UHGV virus genome: UHGV-1790737
Source of the DNA: a virus
DNA: 12,672 bases
Direction: 5' to 3' (one strand)
Positions 1 to 12,672 of this stretch are shown piece after piece. The position numbers and the translations under genes were made by a program. Below the pieces are notes generated by a model. The model was not told the origin of the DNA, did no database searches, and was given only the letters and a program-made list of their open reading frames with translations. The stretch's first letter is position 1. The number at the start of each line of letters is the position of its first letter.

Positions 1-42
1 GCTTGTAATGGGGTAAGTGATAACAGATGTCTGGAAATATAG
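1..42 (+). CDS. insD: IS2 transposase OrfB (InsD) C-terminal codons, 5'-partial at window edge
   Basis: Frame 1 reads ...SDNRCLEI then TAG at 40-42, the same C-terminus as the minus-strand transposase at 11780-12672. Confidence 0.7.
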   Translation, partial: ACNGVSDNRCLEI

Positions 43-53
43 GGGCAAATCCA
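1..53 (+). mobile_element. IS2 right-end fragment (element continues left of the window)
   Basis: Positions 27-53 (tgtctggaaatataggggcaaatcca) are the reverse complement of the terminus of the IS2 copy at 11769-11794. Frame 1 over 1-42 translates to [13 protein letters not shown]-stop, matching the C-terminus of the transposase encoded on the other copy. Identification as IS2 is from recalled InsD and terminal sequence. Confidence 0.8.
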
Positions 54-150
54 GTTACGTCGCTGGACATATGCTGGCGGTAAGCAATGGAAAGGTCTCA
101 TGACTCGTCGTGAGATTGAGCGTGAAATCTGTTTGTGGGGTCAGCAATGA
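54..150 (+). pseudogene. Endolysin 3' remnant (SAR/T4-type lysozyme, phage 21 R / RrrD-like), 5' part replaced by IS2
   Basis: Frame 1 from about 52 reads [32 protein letters not shown]-stop, which I recall as the C-terminus of the phage-21-type lysozyme family. All three + frames carry stops within 1-42, so no N-terminal part exists here. The TGA at 148-150 overlaps the Rz ATG at 147 (ATGA), the usual R-Rz junction. Confidence 0.6.
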
Positions 151-611
151 ACAGAGTAACCGCGATTATCTCCGCTCTGGTTATCTGCATCATCGTCTGC
201 CTGTCATGGGCTGTTAATCATTACCGTGATAACGCCATTACCTACAAAGCCCAGCGCGACAAAAATGCCAGAGAACTGAAGCTGGCGAACGCGGCAATTA
301 CTGACATGCAGATGCGTCAGCGTGATGTTGCTGCGCTCGATGCAAAATACACGAAGGAGTTAGCTGATGCGAAAGCTGAAAATGATGCTCTGCGTGATGA
401 TGTTGCCGCTGGTCGTCGTCGGTTGCACATCAAAGCAGTCTGTCAGTCAGTGCGTGAAGCCACCACCGCCTCCGGCGTGGATAATGCAGCCTCCCCCCGA
501 CTGGCAGACACCGCTGAACGGGATTATTTCACCCTCCGGGAACGACTGGTAATGATGCAGGCCCAACTTGAAGGTGCTCAGCAATACATAACCGAGCAGT
601 GTTTAAAGTAA
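147..611 (+). CDS. rzpR: Rz i-spanin (inner-membrane spanin subunit), 154 aa
   Basis: Translation [60 protein letters not shown]... has an N-terminal TM helix and coiled-coil periplasmic domain and is near-identical to my recollection of lambda Rz. ATG at 147 is preferred over the in-frame GTG at 135 because it overlaps the upstream stop. Symbol given by analogy to Rac. Confidence 0.9.
367..552 (+). CDS. rzoR: Rz1 o-spanin (outer-membrane lipoprotein), embedded in the +1 frame of Rz
   Basis: The 61-aa product [24 protein letters not shown]...[18 protein letters not shown] has a lipoprotein signal with lipobox VVGC and a proline-rich mature region. It lies entirely inside Rz in another frame, the classic Rz/Rz1 arrangement. 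Confidence 0.85.
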
Positions 612-748
612 AATCTTAACTACAATATGATTCATTTTGATGATTGTTTCATAAGGAACAGTGAAGTAAGATCTAAGAGGAGTTAAATTTTATACAGTAT
701 AATCATAATATTGCAGCAAGGTGGTTATAATTGAAAGAATATTTAGAT

Positions 749-2206
749 ATGAATACATCTCATGTAAGAGTTGTTACTCATATGTGTGGGTTCCTGGTTT
801 GGCTCTATAGTCTTTCAATGTTGCCACCAATGGTTGTAGCATTGTTTTATAAAGAAAAAAGCCTGTTCGTTTTCTTTATAACTTTCGTTATATTTTTTTG
901 TATTGGTGGCGGAGCGTGGTATACAACTAAGAAATCTGGCATTCAATTACGTACCCGTGATGGGTTTATTATAATTGTAATGTTTTGGATTTTGTTTTCT
1001 GTTATTAGTGCATTCCCTTTATGGATTGACTCAGAACTTAATTTAACGTTCATTGATGCTCTGTTTGAAGGGGTTTCTGGAATAACAACAACAGGAGCAA
1101 CTGTAATTGATGATGTTAGTTCATTACCTCGGGCATATTTGTACTATCGGTCACAGTTAAATTTTATAGGTGGTTTAGGAGTTATTGTTCTGGCGGTTGC
1201 TGTATTGCCATTATTGGGTATTGGTGGTGCAAAGCTTTATCAGTCAGAAATGCCGGGGCCATTTAAGGATGACAAACTCACTCCCCGCCTGGCCGATACG
1301 TCACGGACACTGTGGATAACTTATTCTTTATTAGGTATTGCTTGTATTGTCTGTTATAGACTTGCAGGAATGCCTTTGTTTGATGCTATTTGTCACGGGA
1401 TTTCCACAGTTTCGCTTGGTGGTTTCTCAACTCATAGCGAGAGTATCGGATATTTTAATAACTATTTGGTTGAGCTGGTGGCTGGTTCTTTTTCCCTGCT
1501 ATCGGCTTTCAACTTCACTCTTTGGTATATTGTTATTAGCAGGAAAACGATAAAACCTTTAATCAGAGATATTGAACTTCGTTTCTTTCTGTTAATAGCC
1601 TTAGGGGTGATCATTGTTACCTCTTTCCAGGTCTGGCATATAGGTATGTATGACTTGCATGGAAGTTTTATTCATTCGTTTTTTCTTGCCAGCTCCATGC
1701 TCACTGATAATGGTTTAGCTACGCAGGATTATGCAAGCTGGCCCACGCACACGATAGTGTTTTTGCTGTTGTCAAGTTTCTTTGGGGGATGTATAGGTTC
1801 AACTTGTGGTGGAATTAAGTCACTTCGATTTCTTATACTTTTCAAACAAAGCAAACACGAGATAAATCAGCTTTCTCATCCCAGAGCGTTGTTGAGTGTA
1901 AATGTAGGAGGGAAGATAGTTACAGATCGTGTAATGAGGTCTGTATGGAGTTTCTTTTTTCTTTATACTCTCTTCACGGTGTTTTTTATACTGGTGTTAA
2001 ATGGTATGGGATATGATTTTCTTACATCATTTGCAACAGTGGCTGCATGTATTAATAATATGGGATTAGGTTTTGGGGCTACTGCATCGTCATTCGGAGT
2101 GCTTAATGACATTGCAAAATATTTAATGTGCATAGCTATGATTCTTGGTCGCCTTGAAATTTATCCTGTTATTATATTGTTTTCAGGTTTTTTTTGGCGC
2201 TCCTAA
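749..2206 (+). CDS. trkG: TrkG, Trk-system potassium uptake membrane protein (TrkH/TrkG family), 485 aa
   Basis: Polytopic membrane protein beginning MNTSHVRVVTHMCGFLVWLYSL..., with GxG-type selectivity-filter-like motifs (TTTGAT, LGGFS, GLGFG). It matches my recollection of Rac-prophage TrkG. The gene and flanks are markedly AT-rich against ~50% GC phage neighbours. ATG at 749 is preferred over the TTG at 731 used by the ORF track. Confidence 0.93.
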   Translation: MNTSHVRVVTHMCGFLVWLYSLSMLPPMVVALFYKEKSLFVFFITFVIFFCIGGGAWYTTKKSGIQLRTRDGFIIIVMFWILFSVISAFPLWIDSELNLTFIDALFEGVSGITTTGATVIDDVSSLPRAYLYYRSQLNFIGGLGVIVLAVAVLPLLGIGGAKLYQSEMPGPFKDDKLTPRLADTSRTLWITYSLLGIACIVCYRLAGMPLFDAICHGISTVSLGGFSTHSESIGYFNNYLVELVAGSFSLLSAFNFTLWYIVISRKTIKPLIRDIELRFFLLIALGVIIVTSFQVWHIGMYDLHGSFIHSFFLASSMLTDNGLATQDYASWPTHTIVFLLLSSFFGGCIGSTCGGIKSLRFLILFKQSKHEINQLSHPRALLSVNVGGKIVTDRVMRSVWSFFFLYTLFTVFFILVLNGMGYDFLTSFATVAACINNMGLGFGATASSFGVLNDIAKYLMCIAMILGRLEIYPVIILFSGFFWRS

Positions 2207-2292
2207 TATATGGCTGATTTATAATTGTGAGTTTAATATTATGTTGACTCACTCATTGATCCAATACTTAACTTTACCAGCAACACCTCCGC

Positions 2293-2327
2293 CCCCAGTA
2301 GCACTGGCTGCTGGGGTGCGTTTTATT
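2293..2327 (+). terminator. Putative intrinsic terminator downstream of trkG
   Basis: Ten-bp stem ccccagtagc (2293-2302) pairing with gctgctgggg (2307-2316), including one G-U pair, around loop actg, then tgcg and ttttatt (2321-2327). The U-tract is offset 4 nt from the stem, so strength is uncertain. Confidence 0.4.
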
Positions 2328-2343
2328 CATAAAGCAAGGATGT

Positions 2344-3135
2344 ATGAGCGAGAAATTAAAGATAGTCTATCGCCCATTACAAGAATTGTCACCGTATGCG
2401 CACAACGCCAGGACGCACAGCCCTGAGCAGGTGGCACAACTGGTAGAAAGTATTAAGCAATTCGGCTGGACTAATCCGGTGCTGATTGACGAAAAGGGCG
2501 AAATTATTGCGGGTCACGGTCGTGTTATGGCGGCTGAAATGCTCAAAATGGATTCTGTTCCGGTCATTGTTCTGTCTGGCCTGACGGATGAGCAGAAAAA
2601 GGCGTACCGCCTGGCAGATAATCGCCTGCCGATGAATGCTGGCTGGGATGAAGATCTGTTGCGGATGGAGCTGTCGGACCTAATCAATGCTGATTTTGAT
2701 GTCTCCCTGACAGGCTTCATCCCGACAGAAATTGATGAACTGTTGACGGATGTTTTGCCCGGTACAGGAAATGAGGAGGAGCCGTATACGACGAAAATTG
2801 ATACGCCTGTTTATGAGCCGTCGGGCGGTAAACCGGATATCAGTGAACTGTACGACGATACGAAAACGCAGGAGCTGATCAGCCGGATACGTTCGGCTTC
2901 CCTTGAGCCTGATATTGAGAAATTCCTCCTGTGTGCGGCAGAACGTCACACGGTGTTTAATTTCAGCAGAATTGCGGACTATTACGCTCACGCCCCCGCT
3001 GAAATTCAGTGTTTTTTCGAGGAGTCGGCGCTGGTGATCATTGATTATCAGCAGGCTATTGAAAATGGATTTGTCCGGATGACGCAGCGCATGGTGGAGA
3101 TCATGCATGGTGGTGAGGAGGAGGAATATGCGTGA
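2344..3135 (+). CDS. ParB/Srx N-terminal domain protein (ParB-like nuclease/NTP-binding fold) with uncharacterised acidic C-terminal domain, 263 aa
   Basis: N-terminal ~90 aa has the ParB/sulfiredoxin signature, including GHGR (nt 2512-2523) followed by VMAA, i.e. a GxxRxxA-type motif. C-terminal ~170 aa is acidic with no family I recognise. SD-like agga sits 4 nt upstream of the ATG. By position after trkG this corresponds to Rac ynaK, which I recall as a short truncated gene in K-12. Confidence 0.85.
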   Translation: MSEKLKIVYRPLQELSPYAHNARTHSPEQVAQLVESIKQFGWTNPVLIDEKGEIIAGHGRVMAAEMLKMDSVPVIVLSGLTDEQKKAYRLADNRLPMNAGWDEDLLRMELSDLINADFDVSLTGFIPTEIDELLTDVLPGTGNEEEPYTTKIDTPVYEPSGGKPDISELYDDTKTQELISRIRSASLEPDIEKFLLCAAERHTVFNFSRIADYYAHAPAEIQCFFEESALVIIDYQQAIENGFVRMTQRMVEIMHGGEEEEYA

Positions 3136-4060
3136 TGATTTTTGCGCCTTTATTCTGACTCACGGGCGACCGGACAAAGTTCTGACTTACCGGACGTTGC
3201 GTCGTGCTGGCTATACCGGGAAAATTTTTATCGTTGTTGATGATGAAGATAAGACACGGCATCAGTACATGGCTGAATTTGGTGAACAGGTGCTGGTGTT
3301 TTCCAAAACCGATATCGCCAGTCGTTTTGACGAAGCCGATAATTTCTGTGACCGCCGCTCAATTTTTTACGCCCGTAATGCCTGTTTCGACCTGGCAAAA
3401 CTGGTCGGGTGTAAATACTTCATTCAGCTCGATGATGATTATCACGAGTTCCAGTTTCGGGTGGATCGCAACTATGACCAGGCCTATTTCCCGATAAGGA
3501 AACTGGATGCGATCCTTTCTGAAATGCTGGCGTACTACGAATCAATACCTGCTCTTTCCATCGCTATGTCGCAGGGCGGGGATTTTCTTGGTGACAATGG
3601 CGGCCATGCTTCGTGGGTGAAACGCAAGGCAATGAACAGCTTTATCTGTTCGGTTGATCGACCGTTCTCATTCATGGGGCGCATTAACGAGGATGTGAAT
3701 ACGTACACGAATCTCGGTCGCTGTGGTGAATTGTTTATGACGATCGGTGCTGTCCAGTTAGGGCAGAAACAGACGCAGAAAAACAGCGGCGGAATGACCG
3801 AGCTGTATCTGGATTCCGGAACCTACGTTAAAAGTTTTTACTCCGTCATGTATGCGCCGTCGTGCGTAAAAATTTCACTGATGGGTGCCAGCCATAAACG
3901 CATTCACCATCAGGTCACCTGGAACAACGCTGCAGTAAAAATCCTTCACGAAAAATACAGGAAGAAGACACCCTGCATATCAATGGGGGTGACAAATGAT
4001 TCCGTATTCGAAAGTCGAGTCTCTGGCAGCGTGCCGGATGACTGCACAACAAATCGCTGA
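3128..4060 (+). CDS. Uncharacterised 310-aa protein translationally coupled to the ParB-like gene (ydaY-like position)
   Basis: ATG at 3128 is preceded by a strong SD (ggagg, 3117-3121, 6-nt spacing) and overlaps the upstream TGA (3133-3135) by 8 nt. Protein begins MRDDFCAFILTHGRPD and carries acidic clusters (VVDDED, QLDDDYHEF). I cannot assign a family from sequence alone. The ORF-track start at 3107 is rejected in favour of the SD-supported ATG. Confidence 0.8.
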   Translation: MRDDFCAFILTHGRPDKVLTYRTLRRAGYTGKIFIVVDDEDKTRHQYMAEFGEQVLVFSKTDIASRFDEADNFCDRRSIFYARNACFDLAKLVGCKYFIQLDDDYHEFQFRVDRNYDQAYFPIRKLDAILSEMLAYYESIPALSIAMSQGGDFLGDNGGHASWVKRKAMNSFICSVDRPFSFMGRINEDVNTYTNLGRCGELFMTIGAVQLGQKQTQKNSGGMTELYLDSGTYVKSFYSVMYAPSCVKISLMGASHKRIHHQVTWNNAAVKILHEKYRKKTPCISMGVTNDSVFESRVSGSVPDDCTTNR

Positions 4061-4247
4061 CGTTCTGGATGTTGATCTGAACCGACTGAAAGAAAATCGG
4101 GAAGCAATGACAGATTTTTATGCGGCCATCCGTAAGGGCAGAGCGAAAGGTGAAGCCGAGTTACGAGCGGCATTGTTTAAGCTTGCCAGAAAAGGGGATG
4201 CCTTTGCTCTGCGCGAACTACTCAGGGTGGATAAAAATCAGGACTAA
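3996..4247 (+). CDS. Small helix-turn-helix DNA-binding protein (83 aa) immediately upstream of the small terminase
   Basis: ATG at 3996 follows a G-rich SD (gggggtga, 3985-3992). HTH-like segment SLAACRMTAQQIADVLDVD. Its stop at 4245-4247 is 3 nt before the terS ATG. Overlaps the 3' end of the preceding gene by 65 nt; the alternative ATG at 4038 has no SD. Confidence 0.6.
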   Translation: MIPYSKVESLAACRMTAQQIADVLDVDLNRLKENREAMTDFYAAIRKGRAKGEAELRAALFKLARKGDAFALRELLRVDKNQD

Positions 4248-4250
4248 CTG

Positions 4251-5345
4251 ATGAGCAGACCGGACTGGGGGGCGTTGCAGCAGGAGTATATTGCTGAATA
4301 CACCCGCTCCGGTATATCTCCGGTGGCATGGTGTGAAGCAAGGGGACTGAATTACGCAACAGCCCGTCGTTACATCAAAAAAACTCCGAAAAATGCGCAG
4401 ACAGAAATGCGCAAAACTGCGCAAAAAAGTGCGCAGAAAAAATCTGCGCAGACTGCACAAAAGCGGAACGAAAAATCTCAGGAAAAAAAGCCAGTATTCG
4501 ATGCGGGCCTGAATGAGGGCGACGCGGAGGAATTTTCGTTCTGTCCCGATGAATTCGGCATTTCTGACCAGCAGGCTAAGTTTGCGATGCTTGTTGCTCA
4601 GGGTAAAAAGCCGACAGAGGCGTACCGACTAGCCGGTTATGAGGGGCAAGGTGCGACAGCTAACAGCAACGCCAGTCGTATGCTTAGAAATGCCAGGGTT
4701 TATCGTGCTATCAGCTACTTCCGCAATCAGTACCAGAAACGCTATACCGCAGACCTGGATTTACTGGTGAGCCAGTTGATGGTCATTGTCCAGGCCGACC
4801 CCAATCAGTTGGCACAATTTCGCCGTGTTAACTGCCGTTATTGCTGGGGCGAGAATCATCTCTACCAGTGGCGTGATATTGCAGAATTCGATAAGGCTGC
4901 GGCACAGGCCTCCAGAGATGGTAAACCCGAGCCGGAATATGGAGGCCTCGGCTTTGTTGATAACGCCATACCCAATCCGGATTGCCCGAAGTGCTGCGGT
5001 GAGGGAACGGGACAGCTTTATATGGCTGATACCACACTGCTTGATGGGGATGCGCGGCAATTATATGCAGGGTCAAAGCTCGGAAAATACGGTGTTGAGA
5101 TCCTGCTGGAGGATAAGGCTGCCGCCCGGCGTGAATTGTTGCGTTTGCTTTCTGCTGGCGGGGCATTATGTGCAGATAAGCGGCTACAGGAACTGGAAAT
5201 TGAACGGCGCAGAATAGAAAACCAGAAGCTGCACAAAGAGATCGAAACGGTGGAAGATAATGAACATCCCCAGCCTGTGGCGATCAATATTAATGTGGTT
5301 GATGCCAGAGTAAGGAGTGATGAAGATGATCTCTCCGACGCTTAA
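4251..5345 (+). CDS. Terminase small subunit (Terminase_2-like core) with N-terminal HTH, Lys/Gln-rich linker, Cys-cluster region and C-terminal coiled coil, 364 aa
   Basis: Central segment QQAKFAMLVAQGKKPTEAYRLAGYEG...ATANSNASRMLRNARVYRAISYF resembles the small-terminase (Terminase_2) signature as I recall it. It sits directly upstream of, and overlaps, the large terminase. Extra features: CRYC...CPKCC cysteine cluster and coiled-coil tail. Confidence 0.8.
   Translation: MSRPDWGALQQEYIAEYTRSGISPVAWCEARGLNYATARRYIKKTPKNAQTEMRKTAQKSAQKKSAQTAQKRNEKSQEKKPVFDAGLNEGDAEEFSFCPDEFGISDQQAKFAMLVAQGKKPTEAYRLAGYEGQGATANSNASRMLRNARVYRAISYFRNQYQKRYTADLDLLVSQLMVIVQADPNQLAQFRRVNCRYCWGENHLYQWRDIAEFDKAAAQASRDGKPEPEYGGLGFVDNAIPNPDCPKCCGEGTGQLYMADTTLLDGDARQLYAGSKLGKYGVEILLEDKAAARRELLRLLSAGGALCADKRLQELEIERRRIENQKLHKEIETVEDNEHPQPVAININVVDARVRSDEDDLSDA
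4394..4458. repeat. Array of five palindromic TGCGCA hexamers (plus a TGCACA variant) inside the 5' part of terS
   Basis: TGCGCA at 4394, 4408, 4418, 4430 and 4445, and TGCACA at 4453, embedded in A-rich spacers. The array encodes the AQK/AQT-rich linker of TerS. Confidence 0.6.
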
Positions 5346-6627
5346 TGTGCCTCAGGCGCGATTTCTTTCAATGCCCCATAAATTTAAAGCCTATATTGCT
5401 GGTTTTGGCTCGGGCAAAACATGGGTTGGGTGTGGCGGCATATGCAAGGGGATTTGGGAGCATCCAGGTATAAATCAGGGATATTTTGCGCCAACGTATC
5501 CCCAAATTCGCGATATTTTTTACCCTACAGTGGAAGAAGTTGCTGCTGACTGGGGATTGAACGTAAAAATTAATGAGGGAAATAAAGAGGTTCACTTTTA
5601 TTACGGACGCCAGTATCGGGGAACCACTGTCTGCAGATCGATGGAGAAGCCACAAACGATCGTCGGTTTCAAAATTGGTAATGCGTTGGTGGATGAACTG
5701 GACATTTTGCCGAAGGAAAAAGCCAGAACGGCGTGGCGCAAGATAATTGCACGTATGCGTTATAAGATTGATGGACTTCGCAACGGTATTGACGTTACAA
5801 CCACGCCGGAAGGATTCAAATTTGTCTACGAGCAGTTTGTTAAAGCCGTGCGTGAAAAAACAGAGCTGGCCTCACTGTATGGTCTGGTGCAGGCATCTAC
5901 TTTCGATAATGAAAAGAACCTGCCAGCAGATTACATTCCTTCGCTTCTTGAATCATACCCTCCAGAGCTGATTAAAGCCTATCTTCGAGGACAGTTTACT
6001 AACCTGACAAGTGGTACTGTTTACCATCAGTTTGACCGGAAACTGAATAATTGCGAAGAAGTGGAGCAGCCAGGGGAGCCGATTTATATTGGGATGGATT
6101 TTAACGTTGGAAAGATGGCGGGAATCGTCCATGTGCTGCGTTTGGGGCTTCCATGTGCGGTAACTGAAATCATCAATGCCTACGATACGCCGGATATGAT
6201 CCGCCTCATTAAAGAACGCTTCTGGCTGTATGATGGGAATGATTACCGGAAAGTGAGGGAAATTTATATTTATCCAGATGCTTCCGGGGACTCCAGAAAA
6301 TCAAGTAACGCAAGTACGACGGATATAGCCCAGCTTAAGCAGGCTGGTTTTAACGTTGTGGTGAACAGCTCGAACCCGCCAGTAAAAGATCGCGTTAACT
6401 CAATGAATGCAATGTTCTGCAATGCCAATGGTGAGCGTCGCTATAAAGTTAATGTGAAGCGTTGCCCGTTATATGCCGAATCTCTGGAGCAACAGGTCTG
6501 GGATGAGAAGGGGGAGCCTGATAAAAAATCTGGCAATGATCACCCGAATGATGCCGGAGGTTATTTCATCGTTAAGCAATTCCCTATTGTCAAACCGACC
6601 GGAAGAGTCACATCACTTCGGATTTAA
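5326..6627 (+). CDS. Terminase large subunit (ATPase/nuclease), about 433 aa
   Basis: Walker A-like motif AGFGSGKT near the N-terminus, acidic motifs in the C-terminal half consistent with a nuclease domain, and position after terS. SD aggag (5313-5317) favours ATG 5326 over the in-frame GTG 5317 and ATG 5320. Overlaps the terS stop. Confidence 0.88.
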   Translation: MISPTLNVPQARFLSMPHKFKAYIAGFGSGKTWVGCGGICKGIWEHPGINQGYFAPTYPQIRDIFYPTVEEVAADWGLNVKINEGNKEVHFYYGRQYRGTTVCRSMEKPQTIVGFKIGNALVDELDILPKEKARTAWRKIIARMRYKIDGLRNGIDVTTTPEGFKFVYEQFVKAVREKTELASLYGLVQASTFDNEKNLPADYIPSLLESYPPELIKAYLRGQFTNLTSGTVYHQFDRKLNNCEEVEQPGEPIYIGMDFNVGKMAGIVHVLRLGLPCAVTEIINAYDTPDMIRLIKERFWLYDGNDYRKVREIYIYPDASGDSRKSSNASTTDIAQLKQAGFNVVVNSSNPPVKDRVNSMNAMFCNANGERRYKVNVKRCPLYAESLEQQVWDEKGEPDKKSGNDHPNDAGGYFIVKQFPIVKPTGRVTSLRI

Positions 6628-6629
6628 TT

Positions 6630-8036
6630 ATGGCTGATATATCAACACCCAACCTCGACTATAACGATATGCTGGAGGCGTGGGATATTAACGACGCACT
6701 GATGGGCGGTACGCTTGAAATGCGCAGGCAGGGGGAAAATTATCTCCCAAAATGGCCTAACGAAGATGAAGACGCTTATAAAAAACGCCTGTCTGTGGCT
6801 ACGCTACTTCCTGTGTATGAAGAAAGCATCAAGCAAAATATTGGGCGCATATTTGCAGAGCCGACAGTATTGAGTGAGGAAACGCCGGCAAAAATCAGGG
6901 AATATGCAGAAAATATCGACATGGAGGGGAGCCGACTGGATGTGTGGGCGCAGCAATTTTTCAGCCTCGCATTTCAGTATGGTGTGGCACATGCGCTGGT
7001 GGACTATCCACGAACGGATATGAAAGAGATTCGGACAAAAGCCGATGAAAACGCGACCGGTGGTCGTCCGTACGTTACGATGCTGAATCCACGCCAGGTT
7101 ATTGGATGGAAATCGAAAGTTGAAAAAGGGAAAGTTGTTCTCACTGATTTGCGTATAAAAGAGGTCATCATTATTGATGGTGATGATTTCGGGCAGAAGA
7201 AGGTGGAGCAGATCCGCCATATTATGCCCCGTCGAGTTGAAATTTATCGACGTAGCGAAGGCACTAATGGCGAATCTGTCTGGACGCTTCATGAGTCATG
7301 GAATACCAGCCGTGATGATATTCCTCTGGTAACACTGTACACGAAGAAAACAGGATTTATGCGTGGTACACCGCCATTGCTTAATCTTGGCTTGCTGAAT
7401 ATCAAGCACTGGCAAAGCCAGAGCGAGCAGGACAATATTCTTCATGTTGCCCGCGTTCCATTGCTGGTGGCCTACGGGCTGGACAGGAATGAAGAACTGA
7501 CGGTTGGTGCATCCACCGCTACGATTTTTGAGGACAGAACAAAAAATGGCCTCGAATATGTTGAACATAGTGGCGCAGCGATAGAATCTGGCGAAACATC
7601 ACTTGAGAAGCTGGAAAATCAGATGCGTCATGCCGGCGCTAAACTTCTGCGTGCTGAAAATACATCCACCAAATCTGTTGATCAGACTAATGAAGAGCGA
7701 ATGCAGGAAAACTCGCCGCTTTATACAATGGCGAACTCCCTCGAAGATGCCCTCGATAATATTCTCCAGATAATGGCGGAATGGATCGGAGAGAGTTGCG
7801 GTGGCAATGTGGATGTGCGCACTGAACTGGATGTATCTGCCCAGGTGTTTGACTCATCCTCCGCGCTGGCTGTTCAGTCATTGCGTCAGGGCGGTGATAT
7901 ACGTCAGATTGATGCGGTTCGGGTGTTGCAGGCGTTGAAATTTATCGATCAGGATTCCCGTCCAGAGGAAGTGATCGATGAATTAAAAAATCAGAGTGTA
8001 ATGCTGATGGAAATCAATGATGCAAACCGTGAATGA
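6630..8036 (+). CDS. Portal protein (DUF4055-type), 468 aa
   Basis: Begins 3 nt after the terL stop. Size and position (terL, then this, then MuF-like) are canonical for a portal. Sequence resembles the DUF4055 portal class as I recall it; not verified by search. Confidence 0.7.
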   Translation: MADISTPNLDYNDMLEAWDINDALMGGTLEMRRQGENYLPKWPNEDEDAYKKRLSVATLLPVYEESIKQNIGRIFAEPTVLSEETPAKIREYAENIDMEGSRLDVWAQQFFSLAFQYGVAHALVDYPRTDMKEIRTKADENATGGRPYVTMLNPRQVIGWKSKVEKGKVVLTDLRIKEVIIIDGDDFGQKKVEQIRHIMPRRVEIYRRSEGTNGESVWTLHESWNTSRDDIPLVTLYTKKTGFMRGTPPLLNLGLLNIKHWQSQSEQDNILHVARVPLLVAYGLDRNEELTVGASTATIFEDRTKNGLEYVEHSGAAIESGETSLEKLENQMRHAGAKLLRAENTSTKSVDQTNEERMQENSPLYTMANSLEDALDNILQIMAEWIGESCGGNVDVRTELDVSAQVFDSSSALAVQSLRQGGDIRQIDAVRVLQALKFIDQDSRPEEVIDELKNQSVMLMEINDANRE

Positions 8037-9132
8037 ACGGCTGCGTGATGAATCAATTGCTCATGCAGTCTGGATATCCCGCTATAGCACTGGCGTGGCT
8101 GCCAGAATGGTGAAAATACTGAATGACAGCGATGCGGAACTTACTGCTCGCCTGCTGATAGCACTGGACAGCCTCGATCCAGGTAGTTTTACCGTTAAGC
8201 GCCTGGAGTCACTTCTGGCGAGCGTCAGAGAGGTTAACCGCACTGCTATTAACAGCATGTTTACCAGTCTCTCCGGAGAGCTGAACGAGCTGGCAATTTA
8301 TGAGGCTGGTTATCAGTTAAGTCTGTTTGATTCTATGCTACCTGATTTTGTTGCTGATGTTCACCCTCTGGTTGGTATCTCTCCTGATGCACTTTATGCC
8401 GCTGCAATGGCGCGACCATTCCAGGGACGACTGCTCAGTGAGTGGGCCTCAGATCTTGAGGCGGATCGGCTCAGACGCATAACAAATACAGTGCGTCAGG
8501 GTTTTTTGCTGGGGGATACCAATGAGCAGATCGCAAGAAAAATTCGGGGACATGTCAGTAAGGGATTTCAGGATGGTGCATTGCAGATGAGCCGGGCTAA
8601 TGCGGCCAGCATTGCAAAAACAGCGGTTGGACATCTTGCTGCTACTGCCCGTGAGAGTTTTGCCAGCGCGAATAATGATTTGATTAAGGGTAAGCAATGG
8701 TTATCAACGCTTGATAATCGTACTACGCCACAATGTCGAATCAGGGATCGCCTCAAATATACGCTGAATAATAAACCTGTAGGTCACAGCGTGCCTTATT
8801 TGCAGGGGCCGGGAAAAATTCATTTCTGCTGCCGCTCAACGGAAACGTTCATTCTGAAATCAGCGAAGGAACTGGGTATTGATGTTCGCGATATTTCCCC
8901 GGCTGAGCGGGCCAGCATGGATGGCGTGATGGCCGGAGATACAACCTACAGGGAATGGTTTTTGCGTCAGCCTTACACCAGACAAAAACAGATTGTGGGG
9001 GAAACCCGAGCAAAGCTGATTCGGGATGGTGGTATGTCGCCAGATGAATTTTACACCGATAAAGGCGAATGGCTGACGCTGAAGCAGCTCCGTGAGCGTG
9101 ATGCACAGGTATTCAGAAAAGCAGGGATTTAA
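8017..9132 (+). CDS. Head morphogenesis protein (Mu F / SPP1 gp7-like minor capsid protein), 371 aa
   Basis: Overlaps the portal stop by 20 nt. Position between portal and scaffold, and length, are typical of MuF-like head morphogenesis proteins. Family assignment is from gene order plus general sequence character. Confidence 0.7.
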   Translation: MMQTVNERLRDESIAHAVWISRYSTGVAARMVKILNDSDAELTARLLIALDSLDPGSFTVKRLESLLASVREVNRTAINSMFTSLSGELNELAIYEAGYQLSLFDSMLPDFVADVHPLVGISPDALYAAAMARPFQGRLLSEWASDLEADRLRRITNTVRQGFLLGDTNEQIARKIRGHVSKGFQDGALQMSRANAASIAKTAVGHLAATARESFASANNDLIKGKQWLSTLDNRTTPQCRIRDRLKYTLNNKPVGHSVPYLQGPGKIHFCCRSTETFILKSAKELGIDVRDISPAERASMDGVMAGDTTYREWFLRQPYTRQKQIVGETRAKLIRDGGMSPDEFYTDKGEWLTLKQLRERDAQVFRKAGI

Positions 9133-9152
9133 ATAAATCATTTATTACAACA

Positions 9153-9178
9153 GGCTACCTTCGGGTGGCCTTTTTTAT
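9153..9178 (+). terminator. Intrinsic terminator between the head morphogenesis and scaffold genes
   Basis: Stem ggctacc (9153-9159), loop ttcg, stem ggtggcc (9164-9170, one G-U pair), then tttttt (9171-9176) and att. Confidence 0.7.
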
Positions 9179-9236
9179 TGCTGCGATCCGGATGGTGAGC
9201 AGCGTAACTGTCGGAAGACTTAAACCAGGTACTAAT

Positions 9237-10001
9237 ATGAAACTGAAAACGGTCGAGATTAACGGAAAACAATACGCAGAAATTGATACTGCTGGCCTGC
9301 CAGTTTATGTGCACGACGATGGTAAAGAAATTGGCTTCGATGCACCGCTGGCGACAAAAAAAATTACAGAGCTTAATGGCGAGGCAAAAAATCATCGCCT
9401 GGCTAAAGAAGCTGCAGAGGAAAAACTGGCTAAGTTTGCCGCTATCGAAGACCCGAAGAAGGCGATCGAGGCACTGGAAATGCTGTCAAAAATCGACCAG
9501 AAAAAGCTGCTCGATGCGGGACAGGTTGACCAGGTTAAGGCAGAAATTACGAAAAATTTTCAGCAGCAATTAGATGAAGAAAAGCAACGCTCTCAGATGC
9601 TGGAGAAGCAGCTTTACGATTCTATGATTGGCGGTAGTTTTGCGGGTTCAAAATATATTGCCGATAAAATTGCGATCCCGGCAGATTTATTACAAGCCCG
9701 CTTCGGGCAGGCATTCAAAGTGGAAGAAGGGAGGATCGTTGCTTATGACGCTTCCGGCAACAAAATTTATTCCCGCGCGAAGCCTGGCGAACTGGCGCAG
9801 TTTGATGAGGCGCTGGAGTTCCTTGTCGAAAATTACCCTCAGAAAGACTACATCCTGAAAGCCAGTGGCAACAATGGCGGCGGCTCCCGTCCGACACAGC
9901 ATGATATTGGTCAGAAAACGATGAAACGCTCTGCTTTTGATGCACTGGATGTTGCAGGTAAGCAAAACGCATTGAAAGACGGTATCACAATCGTTGATTA
10001 A
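9237..10001 (+). CDS. Putative scaffolding protein, 254 aa
   Basis: Lies between the MuF-like and major capsid genes. Charged, coiled-coil-rich middle (EKLAKFAAIEDPKKAIEALEMLSKIDQKKLLDAG...QQQLDEEKQRSQMLEKQLYD). ATG 9237 is chosen because the ORF-track start at 9165 lies inside the terminator hairpin; the SD is weak, so the start is uncertain. Confidence 0.55.
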   Translation: MKLKTVEINGKQYAEIDTAGLPVYVHDDGKEIGFDAPLATKKITELNGEAKNHRLAKEAAEEKLAKFAAIEDPKKAIEALEMLSKIDQKKLLDAGQVDQVKAEITKNFQQQLDEEKQRSQMLEKQLYDSMIGGSFAGSKYIADKIAIPADLLQARFGQAFKVEEGRIVAYDASGNKIYSRAKPGELAQFDEALEFLVENYPQKDYILKASGNNGGGSRPTQHDIGQKTMKRSAFDALDVAGKQNALKDGITIVD

Positions 10002-10099
10002 CACATTTGTCAGCTTCCGGATGGGAGCTGGTGTCAGGGCTGGATAGCTCATTACTCCATCTATTCACAATTACGCAAATTTTTAAGGAATATTTAATT

Positions 10100-11239
10100 A
10101 TGGCTGGAAATACCCTGACCGGGTTGATCCCGACTATTTATACCGCCCTGGATGTTGTATCCCGTGAGCAGGTAGGTTTTATCCCTGCGGTAGCAAAAAA
10201 CGCAAAAGCTGACGCCGCAGCAAAAGATCAGACGGTAACCGCGCCAGTTGCGCCTGAGGCGAAAACCGAAGATATCGTACCGGGGCCGTCAGCTCCGAAT
10301 ACCGGTGATCAAAATATTGGCACTGTTGATGTAAAAATTACTAAATCCAAAATGGCACCGGTTAAATGGAATGGTGAAGAACAACTGGCTCTTGGCCCTT
10401 CAGGGACTTACAACACCATTCTGGCTGATCAGTTCAAGCAGGCTTTTCGCGCCCTTGCAAACGAGGTTGAGGCTGATCTTGGTGCGTTGTATTTCGGTGC
10501 TTCCCGCGCCGTGGGAACCGCAGGGACAACGCCGTTTGGTGTTAAAGATGATCTTTCTGATGCTGCTCTGGCTCGTCAGGTTCTGGAGGATAACGGCGCA
10601 CCGACAACCGATCTGCAGATGGTGCTTGGCTCCACTGCCATTGCTAATTTGCGCGGAAAACAGTCTGTATTGTTTAAAGTGAATGAATCCGGCACTGAAC
10701 AGCTACTGCGTGAGGGCGTGTTGGGGCGTCTGGAGGGATTCAATATTCACAGTTCGGCAGGTGTGAAACGAGCGCCAAAGGTTGCTGCAACTGGTTATCT
10801 CGTGAATGGAGAGAAAAAAGAAGGCGATGTTCTTATTTCCATTGATACTGGTTCGGGGAGTATTTCTGCAGGTCAGATTGTTACGTTCGCTGGTGATCCG
10901 AATCAGTATGTTGTGGCAGCAGCGACCAGCAATCTGATTACTCTTGCAGCGCCCGGACTGCGTCAGGATCTGGCCGATGATACTGCCATCACAGTTGTTG
11001 GGGCCTTTACTGCAAATATGGCGTTTGATCGCAACGCGTTTCTGCTGGCATCCCGTACTCCGGCAATGCCGGAAGGTGGCGATAATGCTGATGATGTAAT
11101 GAATGTTACGGACCCGATTTCAGGGATTACGTTCCAGATTGCACTGTATCGTCAGTATCGCCAGGTGCGCTATGAAGTTGGACTGGCATGGGGTGTTTCA
11201 TCAGTGAAGCCGGCACATGGTTGTCTGATTCTTGGTTAA
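10100..11239 (+). CDS. Major capsid (coat) protein, 379 aa
   Basis: Follows the scaffold gene and is followed by a strong terminator. ATG 10100 is preceded by SD-like aagga (10085-10089). Size and Gly/Ala/Thr-rich composition fit a coat protein. The ORF-track extension to 10007 is rejected. Confidence 0.8.
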   Translation: MAGNTLTGLIPTIYTALDVVSREQVGFIPAVAKNAKADAAAKDQTVTAPVAPEAKTEDIVPGPSAPNTGDQNIGTVDVKITKSKMAPVKWNGEEQLALGPSGTYNTILADQFKQAFRALANEVEADLGALYFGASRAVGTAGTTPFGVKDDLSDAALARQVLEDNGAPTTDLQMVLGSTAIANLRGKQSVLFKVNESGTEQLLREGVLGRLEGFNIHSSAGVKRAPKVAATGYLVNGEKKEGDVLISIDTGSGSISAGQIVTFAGDPNQYVVAAATSNLITLAAPGLRQDLADDTAITVVGAFTANMAFDRNAFLLASRTPAMPEGGDNADDVMNVTDPISGITFQIALYRQYRQVRYEVGLAWGVSSVKPAHGCLILG

Positions 11240-11249
11240 ACATTCAAAC

Positions 11250-11269
11250 GGGGCTTCGGCCCCATTTTT
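11250..11269 (+). terminator. Intrinsic terminator after the major capsid gene
   Basis: Stem ggggc (11250-11254), loop ttcg, stem gcccc (11259-11263), then a and ttttt (11265-11269). Confidence 0.7.
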
Positions 11270-11281
11270 AATGGGGGGCAT

Positions 11282-11458
11282 ATGGCCGGATTAACTAAAG
11301 AGCAAAGAGCACAGCGTGAAGCCGCACAAAAAACGCAAATTGAGTTAGTGGTTATGGTGACCGATTATCAGATGTTTCCCGGCGCACCAACTATCGCTAA
11401 TGTTCATCCTGATGAAGTTGACAACTGGAAGGCTATGGGCTGGAAAACTCAGGAGTAA
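11282..11458 (+). CDS. Small hypothetical protein (58 aa), absent from the ORF track
   Basis: ATG at 11282 is preceded by a G-run SD (11273-11278). Translation MAGLTKEQRAQREAAQKTQIELVVMVTDYQMFPGAPTIANVHPDEVDNWKAMGWKTQE. Its TAA (11456-11458) is 3 nt before the next ATG (11462), suggesting coupling. Confidence 0.5.
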   Translation: MAGLTKEQRAQREAAQKTQIELVVMVTDYQMFPGAPTIANVHPDEVDNWKAMGWKTQE

Positions 11459-11461
11459 CAC

Positions 11462-11809
11462 ATGATCACTTACGTGACCTGTGATGACGTTGATAATGCG
11501 TTTGGGAACGCCTGGACGAGTGAGAACGCTAAAAATAAAGCTGTTTTAATGGCTAATGCCTGGCTTAATGGCTTCAACCTGAAAATTAACCCATCCCGTA
11601 TTCCGGAAGAGGTAAAACTTGCGGGAGCATATGCAGCCAGAATTGCCTCATTCGGTAAGTTGTTTCAGCAGAAAAATGATTCTGGCGTTGTTATCAGTAA
11701 AGCCGTGTCGGCTGACGGGGTCAGTGTATCGAAATCATTTTCTGAGTTGCCAGCAAACAGCACTGCATTGGATTTGCCCCTATATTTCCAGACACCTGTT
11801 ATCACTTAA
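11462..11809 (+). pseudogene. Phage structural gene (head-completion/connector candidate by position) truncated by IS2; the last ~13 codons are read from IS2 sequence
   Basis: ORF MITYVTCDDVDNAFGNAWTSENAKNKAVLMANAWLNGF... runs in frame across the IS2 boundary at 11768/11769, so the native reading frame is interrupted after ~102 codons. The functional call is positional only. Confidence 0.55.
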
Positions 11810-12672
11810 CCCATTACTGGCTTGCTGCCGTAGATATTCCCGTGGCGAGCGATAACCCAGTGCACTATGCGGATGCCATTCGTTATAATGCTCGAACGCC
11901 TCTGCAAGGTTCTTTGCTGCCGTTAACCCGTCTGGTTTGGGCATGACACTGATGTAGTCACGCTTTATCGTTTTCACGAAGCTCTCTGCTATGCCGTTAC
12001 TCTCCGGACTCCGCACCGCCGTGCTCTTCGGTTCAAGCCCCAACATCCGGGCAAACTGCCGTGTTTCATTAGCCCGGTAGCATGAACCATTATCCGTCAG
12101 CCACTCTACTGGAGACGCCGGAAGCTCGTTGCCGAAGCGGCGTTCCACCGCTCCCAGCATGACGTCCTGTACTGTTTCACTGTTGAAGCCGCCCGTAGTG
12201 ACCGCCCAGTGCAGTGCCTCACGGTCACAGCAGTCCAGCGCGAACGTGACTCGCAGTTTTTCTCCGTTATCACAGCGGAACTCGAACCCGTCAGAGCACC
12301 ATCGCTGATTACTTTCTTTCACAGCCACTCTGCCTGTATGTGCCCGTTTCGATGGCGGTACAGCAGGTTTTCGCTCAAGCAACAGCGCATTCTGGCGCAT
12401 GATCCGGTAAACACGTTTGGCATTGATCGCAGGCATACCATCAAGTTCTGCCTGTCTGCGAAGCAGCGCCCATACCCGACGATAACCATACGTGGGCAGC
12501 TCTCCGATAACATGGTGTATACGGAGAAGCACATCCGTATCATCAGTGTGACGACTGCGGCGGCCATCCATCCAGTCATCGGTTCGTCTGAGAATGACGT
12601 GCAACTGCGCACGCGACACCCGGAGACAACGGCTGACTAAGCTTACTCCCCATCCCCGGGCAATAAGGGCGC
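11769..12672 (-). mobile_element. IS2 (partial; continues beyond the right window edge), inverted relative to the left copy
   Basis: Terminus tggatttgcccctatatttccagaca at 11769 onward, and the encoded InsD transposase. The terminal 53 nt are about 92% identical (4 mismatches) to the reverse complement of 1-53. Confidence 0.9.
11780..12672 (-). CDS. insD: IS2 transposase OrfB (InsD), 5'-partial (N-terminus beyond window)
   Basis: Minus-strand translation ...[70 protein letters not shown]...[36 protein letters not shown] matches IS2 InsD as I recall it (DDE integrase-type). The frame remains open to the window edge at 12672. Confidence 0.9.

Follow-up and report, generated by a model that had tools for sequence, protein, structure and literature searches.

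Two IS2 insertions in the late region of an Escherichia coli Rac-like prophage are probably independent, with contig edges set by the IS2 repeats

In the Rac prophage of Escherichia coli K-12, the head module that lay between ynaK and ydaY has been lost. The insertion sequence (IS) IS2 is asymmetric in the use of its ends: the left inverted repeat (IRL) is an exclusive recipient end, without donor function, and derivatives of IS2 that carry a left end on both sides form no minicircles, whereas those with two right ends do (PMC3299598). Here we analyse UHGV virus genome UHGV-1790737, a stretch of 12,672 nucleotides (nt; the whole stretch is referred to below as the window) in which part of a Rac-like prophage lies between the right ends of two IS2 copies. 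The window is most probably explained by two independent, ordinary IS2 insertions into an E. coli Rac-like prophage, with the edges of the contig set by the IS2 repeats.

The two copies were identified from their right inverted repeats (IRR). The left one is represented by its right end, at positions 1-53 of the + strand, with the body of the element to the left, outside the contig. These 53 bases correspond to the IS2 IRR in reverse complement, with the tip ...GGGGCAAATCCA at 42-53 ending in CCA-3' at base 53, and orfB/InsD ends within them, with its final 13 codons (1-39) and the stop codon (40-42). The right copy lies on the - strand at 11769-12672 and comprises 904 nt, on the IRR side, of an IS2 isoform 1331 bp long. 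Its IRR begins at 11769 with TGGATTTGCCCC, and the element runs to the last base of the window, 12672, where the contig end truncates it at IS coordinate 428. Of the left copy 53 nt are visible, and of the right copy 904 of 1331 nt; in both of them the IRR tip (42-53 and 11769-11780) matches TGGATTTGCCCC, with the CA-3' end. The presence of the right copy had been correctly predicted, although its implied start of about 11771 was 2 nt off. The orfB frame of this copy stays open for 297 codons, running from the contig end as far as a stop codon at 11780-11782 (the mechanically listed open reading frame (ORF) spans 11780-12619), and its product carries the HTH_21, rve and rve_3 domains; orfA and the frameshift site would fall past the contig end. 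The sole inverted repeat of at least 20 nt in the window is formed by these two ends (arms 5-53 and 11769-11817, 49 nt, 96% complementary). Direct reading of the ends bears out the original prediction of two non-identical IS2 copies in inverted orientation with their IRR ends facing inward: the two 53-nt ends are mismatched at 4 positions, and translation confirms that the InsD C-termini also differ.

Comparison with full-length elements shows how far the two copies are from each other. As canonical reference we used the 1331-bp IS2 copy of strain 2EC1, which PGAP names as IS2 family. The left 53 nt match this reference at 52 of 53 positions, and are identical (53/53) to IS2 copies in about 100 complete-genome records, where they are annotated as IS2 family transposase; they are also identical to the end of a full 1331-bp IS2 in strain DA33133, which is flanked by a GATCC target duplication. 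The right 904 nt match the reference at 880 positions (97.3%), within the range of at least 95% identity for an isoform, and are identical throughout (904/904) to an isoform of strain 210205630, present there as a full 1331-bp element with perfect target-site duplications (TSDs). Between full-length canonical and isoform copies, 28-30 of 1331 positions differ (97.7-97.9% identity), and in PGAP the right isoform is called merely “IS3 family transposase” (WP_102384962.1). The left and right copies are therefore distinct IS2 alleles, and not sister copies of one recent transposition. The earlier description of them as “not fresh copies of one element” holds, the right copy being a 97.3-97.9% isoform and the left 53-mer a near-canonical allele.

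Between the two tips, 11,715 nt align without gaps, at 99.4-99.6% identity, to prophages without the two insertions (strains F163, 2EC1 and 210205630). The segment is also 99.5% identical to the phage record vB_EcoS-683R6 (ON470595) over essentially its whole length. In a megablast comparison with 5,426 complete E. coli genomes, 696 of them had a place that covers at least 80% of the whole window, and the prophage type is present, at an identity of at least 99%, in about 13% of complete E. coli genomes. The comparison with prophages lacking the IS copies, which had been proposed together with the original prediction, allowed the intact rrrD gene and an intact gene for the 131-amino-acid (aa) head-tail adaptor Ad1 to be reconstructed from F163, and each IS copy was found to interrupt one of these genes.

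At the left, the gene that had been predicted to be cut is indeed that of the endolysin (intact RrrD matches phrog_7, 1e-68). The IS tip adjoins nt 402 of rrrD, numbered according to the uninterrupted prophage of F163, and a 3' remnant of the gene follows at 54-150 (+ strand), with the last 31 full codons and the stop codon, the first ~134 codons having been split off by IS2. Beside the tip, GTTAC at 54-58 corresponds to rrrD nt 402-406 and is the expected right-hand copy of a 5-bp target duplication. At the right, the interrupted gene, predicted to be a post-capsid structural gene, is identified as that of Ad1 (phrog_493, E=7e-49). Its first 102 of 131 codons are present at 11462-11768 (+ strand), and the IS tip abuts nt 307 of the gene in F163, so that it is interrupted after codon 102. 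The ORF continues for 13 codons into the IS, to a stop codon at 11807-11809, giving a 115-aa fusion product that has been called in two metagenome assemblies. TGCAT, at 11764-11768 beside the right tip, stands where the left-hand copy of a 5-bp target duplication is expected.

Both junctions need to be considered in the light of the assembly from which they come. The window is a whole short-read metagenome contig, ena:ERZ654457:NODE_574_length_12672_cov_10.107870, which has the same length as the window and is identical to it in sequence from 1462 onward; the name is in SPAdes format, and the coverage is about 10x. This contig and one further contig were found by look-up of the 115-aa Ad1-IS fusion protein. 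The second contig (MEHT18-1 scaffold_624 of ERZ28624341, here L006) carries the same Ad1::IS2 junction, with 99.9% identity to the window across 10.2 kb and a 100-N scaffold gap within the small terminase gene. Because the same right junction is found in an independent assembly, the right insertion is real and recurrent, and L006 and the window together suggest one E. coli lineage present in two samples. The L006 locus begins at window position 1237, and a further 772 nt of scaffold to the left would, by arithmetic and not by direct sight, bring it to about position 465.

Both ends of the window fall within IS2 sequence, which is a multicopy repeat. IS sequence at both ends of such a contig is expected, because the assembler cannot pass unresolved multicopy IS2 repeats, and the symmetric “bracket” is mostly assembly rather than biology. 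The statement that two IS2 copies bracket the whole segment was therefore an over-reading: it describes mainly where a short-read assembler stopped, since the window is the entire contig and the second assembly likewise halts, 55 nt into the IS. The same caution applies to window-based scans in general, in that, if the stretch scanned is an entire short-read contig, repeats are to be expected at its two ends and are not a bracketing architecture. The right end presumably reaches 904 nt into the IS because the isoform can be distinguished from other copies along part of its length. The idea that this end lies one k-mer (k=55) beyond the last mismatch with canonical IS2 was rejected, as the actual distance is 349 nt.

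A metagenome contig with a coverage of just ~10x might also be a chimera, in which different co-resident strains with near-identical prophages supplied the left and the right junction, or in which the left 53 nt are an artefact of the assembly graph. The commonness of the prophage type speaks for this, as does the second assembly, which shares the right junction and falls short of the left one. However, the left junction is placed exactly at the IS2 tip, at a pentanucleotide that is a proven IS2 target in E. coli PSJ-16 and KTE102 (see below), and the 11.7 kb between the tips align gap-free to single genomes. Junctions exactly at IS tips are what real transposition predicts, and a random mis-join is thereby disfavoured; we consider an assembly chimera to be very unlikely.

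Under the explanation by two independent insertions, a near-canonical IS2 allele would have inserted into rrrD at nt 402-406 by copy-out/paste-in transposition, and an IS2 isoform of 97-98% identity would have inserted independently, by the same route, into the Ad1 gene after codon 102. Each insertion would have truncated one late gene, leaving trkG and the other genes intact. Beyond the left IS, rrrD nt 1-406, ending ...GATCAGTTAC, would then be expected, followed by the start of the IS at TAGACTGG. Beyond the right IS, one would expect the remaining 427 nt of the element, ending CCAGTCTA, then TGCAT, and then TGCTTGAACC..., which begins the last 29 codons of Ad1. We infer full length and a 5-bp target duplication for each of the IS copies, and the presence of both insertions in one genome.

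Three other IS2 insertions in rrrD were examined, those of 2EC1, 210205630 and PSJ-16, and all are complete with perfect 5-bp TSDs; every comparator IS2 examined is 1331 bp long. In strain 210205630 the element lies at rrrD nt 269 (TSD TCAAA) and in 2EC1 at nt 290 (TSD CAACG). In PSJ-16 an IS2 isoform occupies nt 402-406, the same site as in the window, with GCTAC on both sides and in the opposite orientation (the comparator loci are L004 375-3041 for PSJ-16, L001 2723-4053 and L002 4001-5331). The PSJ-16 isoform itself holds a second, nested 1331-bp IS2 isoform (TSD ATCAG), and the PSJ-16 prophage is without the stretch equivalent to window positions 2770-5181, from ynaK to the terminase. In 2EC1, ISEc52 adjoins IS2 in the rrrD region.

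A simple left insertion makes a further prediction for the far side of the element, namely a 151-aa fusion of RrrD residues 1-135 with a read-through of the IRL, having the tail ...DQLLDWPPESPDNQYHLFK. This tail is encoded by the IRL of the IS2 allele that bears the 53-mer of the window, and exactly the predicted 151-aa protein is on record in E. coli KTE102 (EOW10389.1, 3 contigs). The record implies an rrrD nt 1-406 stretch followed by the IRL in KTE102; rrrD::IS2 with the site and orientation of the window, and with the remainder of rrrD across the element, therefore occurs in nature, which lends indirect support to a complete left copy. The KTE102 locus was not recovered by a search with the Rz protein of the window, the places returned all having an intact lysozyme gene.

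These comparisons bear on the possibility that one or both of the IS copies are not simple complete insertions, but the result of IS2-mediated deletion, inversion or nesting, with unrelated DNA beyond them or with a truncated IS. The rrrD region of relatives has been much reworked by IS elements, as in the nested IS2 and the deletion from ynaK to the terminase of PSJ-16 and the ISEc52 beside IS2 in 2EC1, and the expected outer junctions are absent from every collection scanned. Set against this, the scanned collections are likewise without the inner junctions, the predicted outer-left fusion protein is on record in KTE102, and the comparator IS2 copies are all of 1331 bp with a perfect 5-bp TSD. 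We regard rearranged or truncated copies as unlikely.

There are several points that weigh against two independent, ordinary insertions. The two junctions are linked in a single contig of 10x coverage alone, and this contig ends inside both IS copies, so that the outer junctions are outside the window. Megablast searches of the complete E. coli genomes, made with the whole window and with the individual junctions, gave neither the exact left nor the exact right junction, and exact-pattern scans of metagenome, viral and species-representative genome collections returned none of the four inner and outer junctions. In addition, a simple k=55 merge with the canonical allele does not account for the contig stopping at IS coordinate 428. 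The negative scans for the outer junctions say little, because the same collections also lack the inner ones. A second copy of TGCAT, at the outer right junction, was found neither in the scans nor by peptide look-up, and exact look-up of the predicted outer-right fusion peptides (43, 41 and 29 aa) was empty, a result that is uninformative as ORFs so short are rarely called. The top megablast matches to the whole window were discarded as artefacts that join IS2 copies located elsewhere in rrrD.

The rrrD gene has been used by IS2 repeatedly. Eighteen complete genomes carry an IS2 right end no more than 600 nt upstream of the 3' part of rrrD, at no fewer than 10 distinct distances, and further IS2 insertions in rrrD are visible in complete genomes from the IRL side. 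The pentanucleotide GYTAC at nt 402-406 has been used in both orientations, by different IS2 alleles, in the window, PSJ-16 and KTE102. Behind the repeated use of rrrD there may be a hot spot, chance, or selection against lysis. IS2 lacks a clear target motif (PMC5009759), and the shared site could well be due to chance: by a rough estimate, the probability that one site is shared among ~12-25 events in 498 nt is ~0.1-0.45. A stronger version, in which GYTAC or rrrD is an IS2 hot spot, or in which knock-outs of the lysis gene are selected as a form of IS-driven domestication, and in which the inward IRR pair in addition permits deletion of the 11.7 kb, seems to us rather improbable.

The original prediction also held that an IS-bounded block carrying trkG and neighbouring genes could in principle move as a composite unit. 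In such an arrangement IS2-[11.7 kb]-IS2 would be a functional composite transposon for trkG and the ParB_N and glycosyltransferase genes described below, and the position of these cargo genes between two inverted IS copies would fit this, as would the plasmid occurrence, in several genera, of an Rz-trkG-ynaK' fragment. Since the two IRR tips point inward, however, both outer ends are IRL, the donor-inactive end of IS2 (PMC3299598), so that, judged from orientation and this published work, the unit would have no competent outer ends. The plasmid trkG fragment is only 2.7 kb long and lies within an int-xis...tfa prophage remnant beside IS26, without IS2 bounds; no plasmid covers at least 80% of the block, and the right junction occurs in 0 of the 5,426 complete genomes. 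An IS2-bounded unit in a second genomic context was found neither in complete genomes and plasmids nor in the viral, metagenome and genome scans. As the outer ends would both be IRL and no second location was found, a composite unit is disfavoured, and we regard it as extremely improbable; the claim is therefore not upheld. IS2 “composite transposons” with this geometry can be dismissed quickly on orientation, both outer ends being IRL.

The plasmid-borne Rz-trkG-ynaK' segment is 2.7 kb long, is 99.2% identical to window positions 56-2764, and occurs in Citrobacter, Klebsiella, Enterobacter and E. coli on plasmids of the IncA and IncHI1B/IncY types (L007 6001-8709, L008 6001-8709 and L009 5001-7709). 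It lies inside a remnant running from int-xis to a tail-fibre-assembly gene, and its neighbours include IS26, Tn5403 and ars genes. The notion that the plasmid trkG fragments begin at the IS2 site was rejected, as rrrD continues upstream in those plasmids.

Two further consequences of the inverted arrangement can be envisaged. Transposase acting to join the inward IRR ends, which are donor-competent, could in principle delete the block. RecA-mediated inversion between the two IS2 copies is plausible; if the left copy is a full-length allele of the DA33133 type, as we infer, the two copies would share an identical stretch of 667 bp between mismatches at IS coordinates 109 and 777. Short reads bear no trace of an inversion between inverted IS copies (PMC5009759), and the two inversion isomers have identical inner junctions, namely those present in the window.

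The genes between the IS tips are all on the + strand. An intact Rz-type spanin or lysis protein (147-611; PF03245, 3.5e-53) is followed by the intact potassium transporter gene trkG, a phage cargo gene (749-2206; PF02386, 4e-144; start of the mechanically listed ORF at 731), by an intact gene for a 263-aa ParB_N-domain protein homologous to YnaK (2344-3135), and by a homologue of the TAGT-family (TET-associated) glycosyltransferases (3107-4060; PF20691, 3e-35; phrog_842, 7e-104). The head module follows at 4251-11458, with all frames open and ungapped alignment at 99.4-99.6% to uninterrupted prophages. It encodes a small terminase (4251-5345), a large terminase (5317-6627), a portal-like DUF4055 protein (6630-8036), a Mu F-like minor head protein (PF04233; 8017-9132), a scaffold-like DUF6651 protein (9165-10001), a P22-type major capsid protein (10100-11239) and a 58-aa protein (11282-11458). 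Pfam and PHROG assignments are concordant, and the colinear order of lysis cassette, trkG, ynaK and head module is that of a Rac-like lambdoid late region.

What had been described as a “ParB-like pair” is such in its first member only, the ParB_N protein, the second being the TAGT-family glycosyltransferase. These two genes between trkG and the terminase may form a DNA-modification module; no TET/JBP gene was found within the window. In complete genomes, PGAP annotates ynaK as a 258-nt pseudogene “missing C-terminus” (L001 6456-6713, L003 6293-6550), and the same DNA (ungapped, 99.5%) encodes the intact 263-aa ParB_N ORF. The pseudogene call is probably an annotation artefact that stems from a truncated K-12 YnaK reference. 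In related phage records the Mu F-like protein at 8017-9132 is labelled “NAD+--asparagine ADP-ribosyltransferase”. A three-copy direct repeat at 2137-2165, 7220-7248 and 7918-7946 shares GTTGAAATTTATC, with 69-76% identity to the reference copy; it falls in unrelated genes and is probably due to chance.

Judging from the truncations of rrrD and the Ad1 gene, this prophage copy should be unable to lyse its host normally or to join heads to tails. The proposal that the IS copies explain how the prophage became defective is thus plausible as regards lysis and head-tail joining; as an account of the whole prophage it goes too far, as just ~12 kb are visible. If the reading of the sequence given here is right, the window would show the route by which a Rac-like prophage copy came to lose lysis and head-tail joining yet kept trkG. 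The picture is one of already-known biology, in which a common Rac-like prophage decays through ordinary IS2 activity, rather than of a new mobile unit.

The locus can be set beside four known systems. With the repeat-induced breaks of de Bruijn graph assemblies it shares contig ends inside a multicopy IS, as also seen in the second assembly; it differs in the depth of the right end within the IS, 904 nt instead of about one k-mer. Like composite transposons of the Tn10/Tn5 type, it has cargo between two inverted IS copies, but its outer ends are both IRL and no second location of the unit is known. Simple insertions of IS2 (IS3 family, IS2 group) resemble both copies in the IRR with its CA-3' tip and in the 97-100% nucleotide identity to annotated 1331-bp copies, and the right copy in the OrfB domains HTH_21, rve and rve_3; the target pentanucleotide of the left copy is that of complete IS2 insertions with 5-bp duplications, and no mechanistic difference is seen in the 53 nt and 904 nt that are visible. 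Finally, the gene order holin-rrrD-Rz-trkG-ynaK...ydaY is that of the Rac prophage of K-12 and of fuller relatives such as ON470595. Unlike Rac, the prophage of the window has kept its head module, and it carries IS2 in rrrD and in the Ad1 gene.

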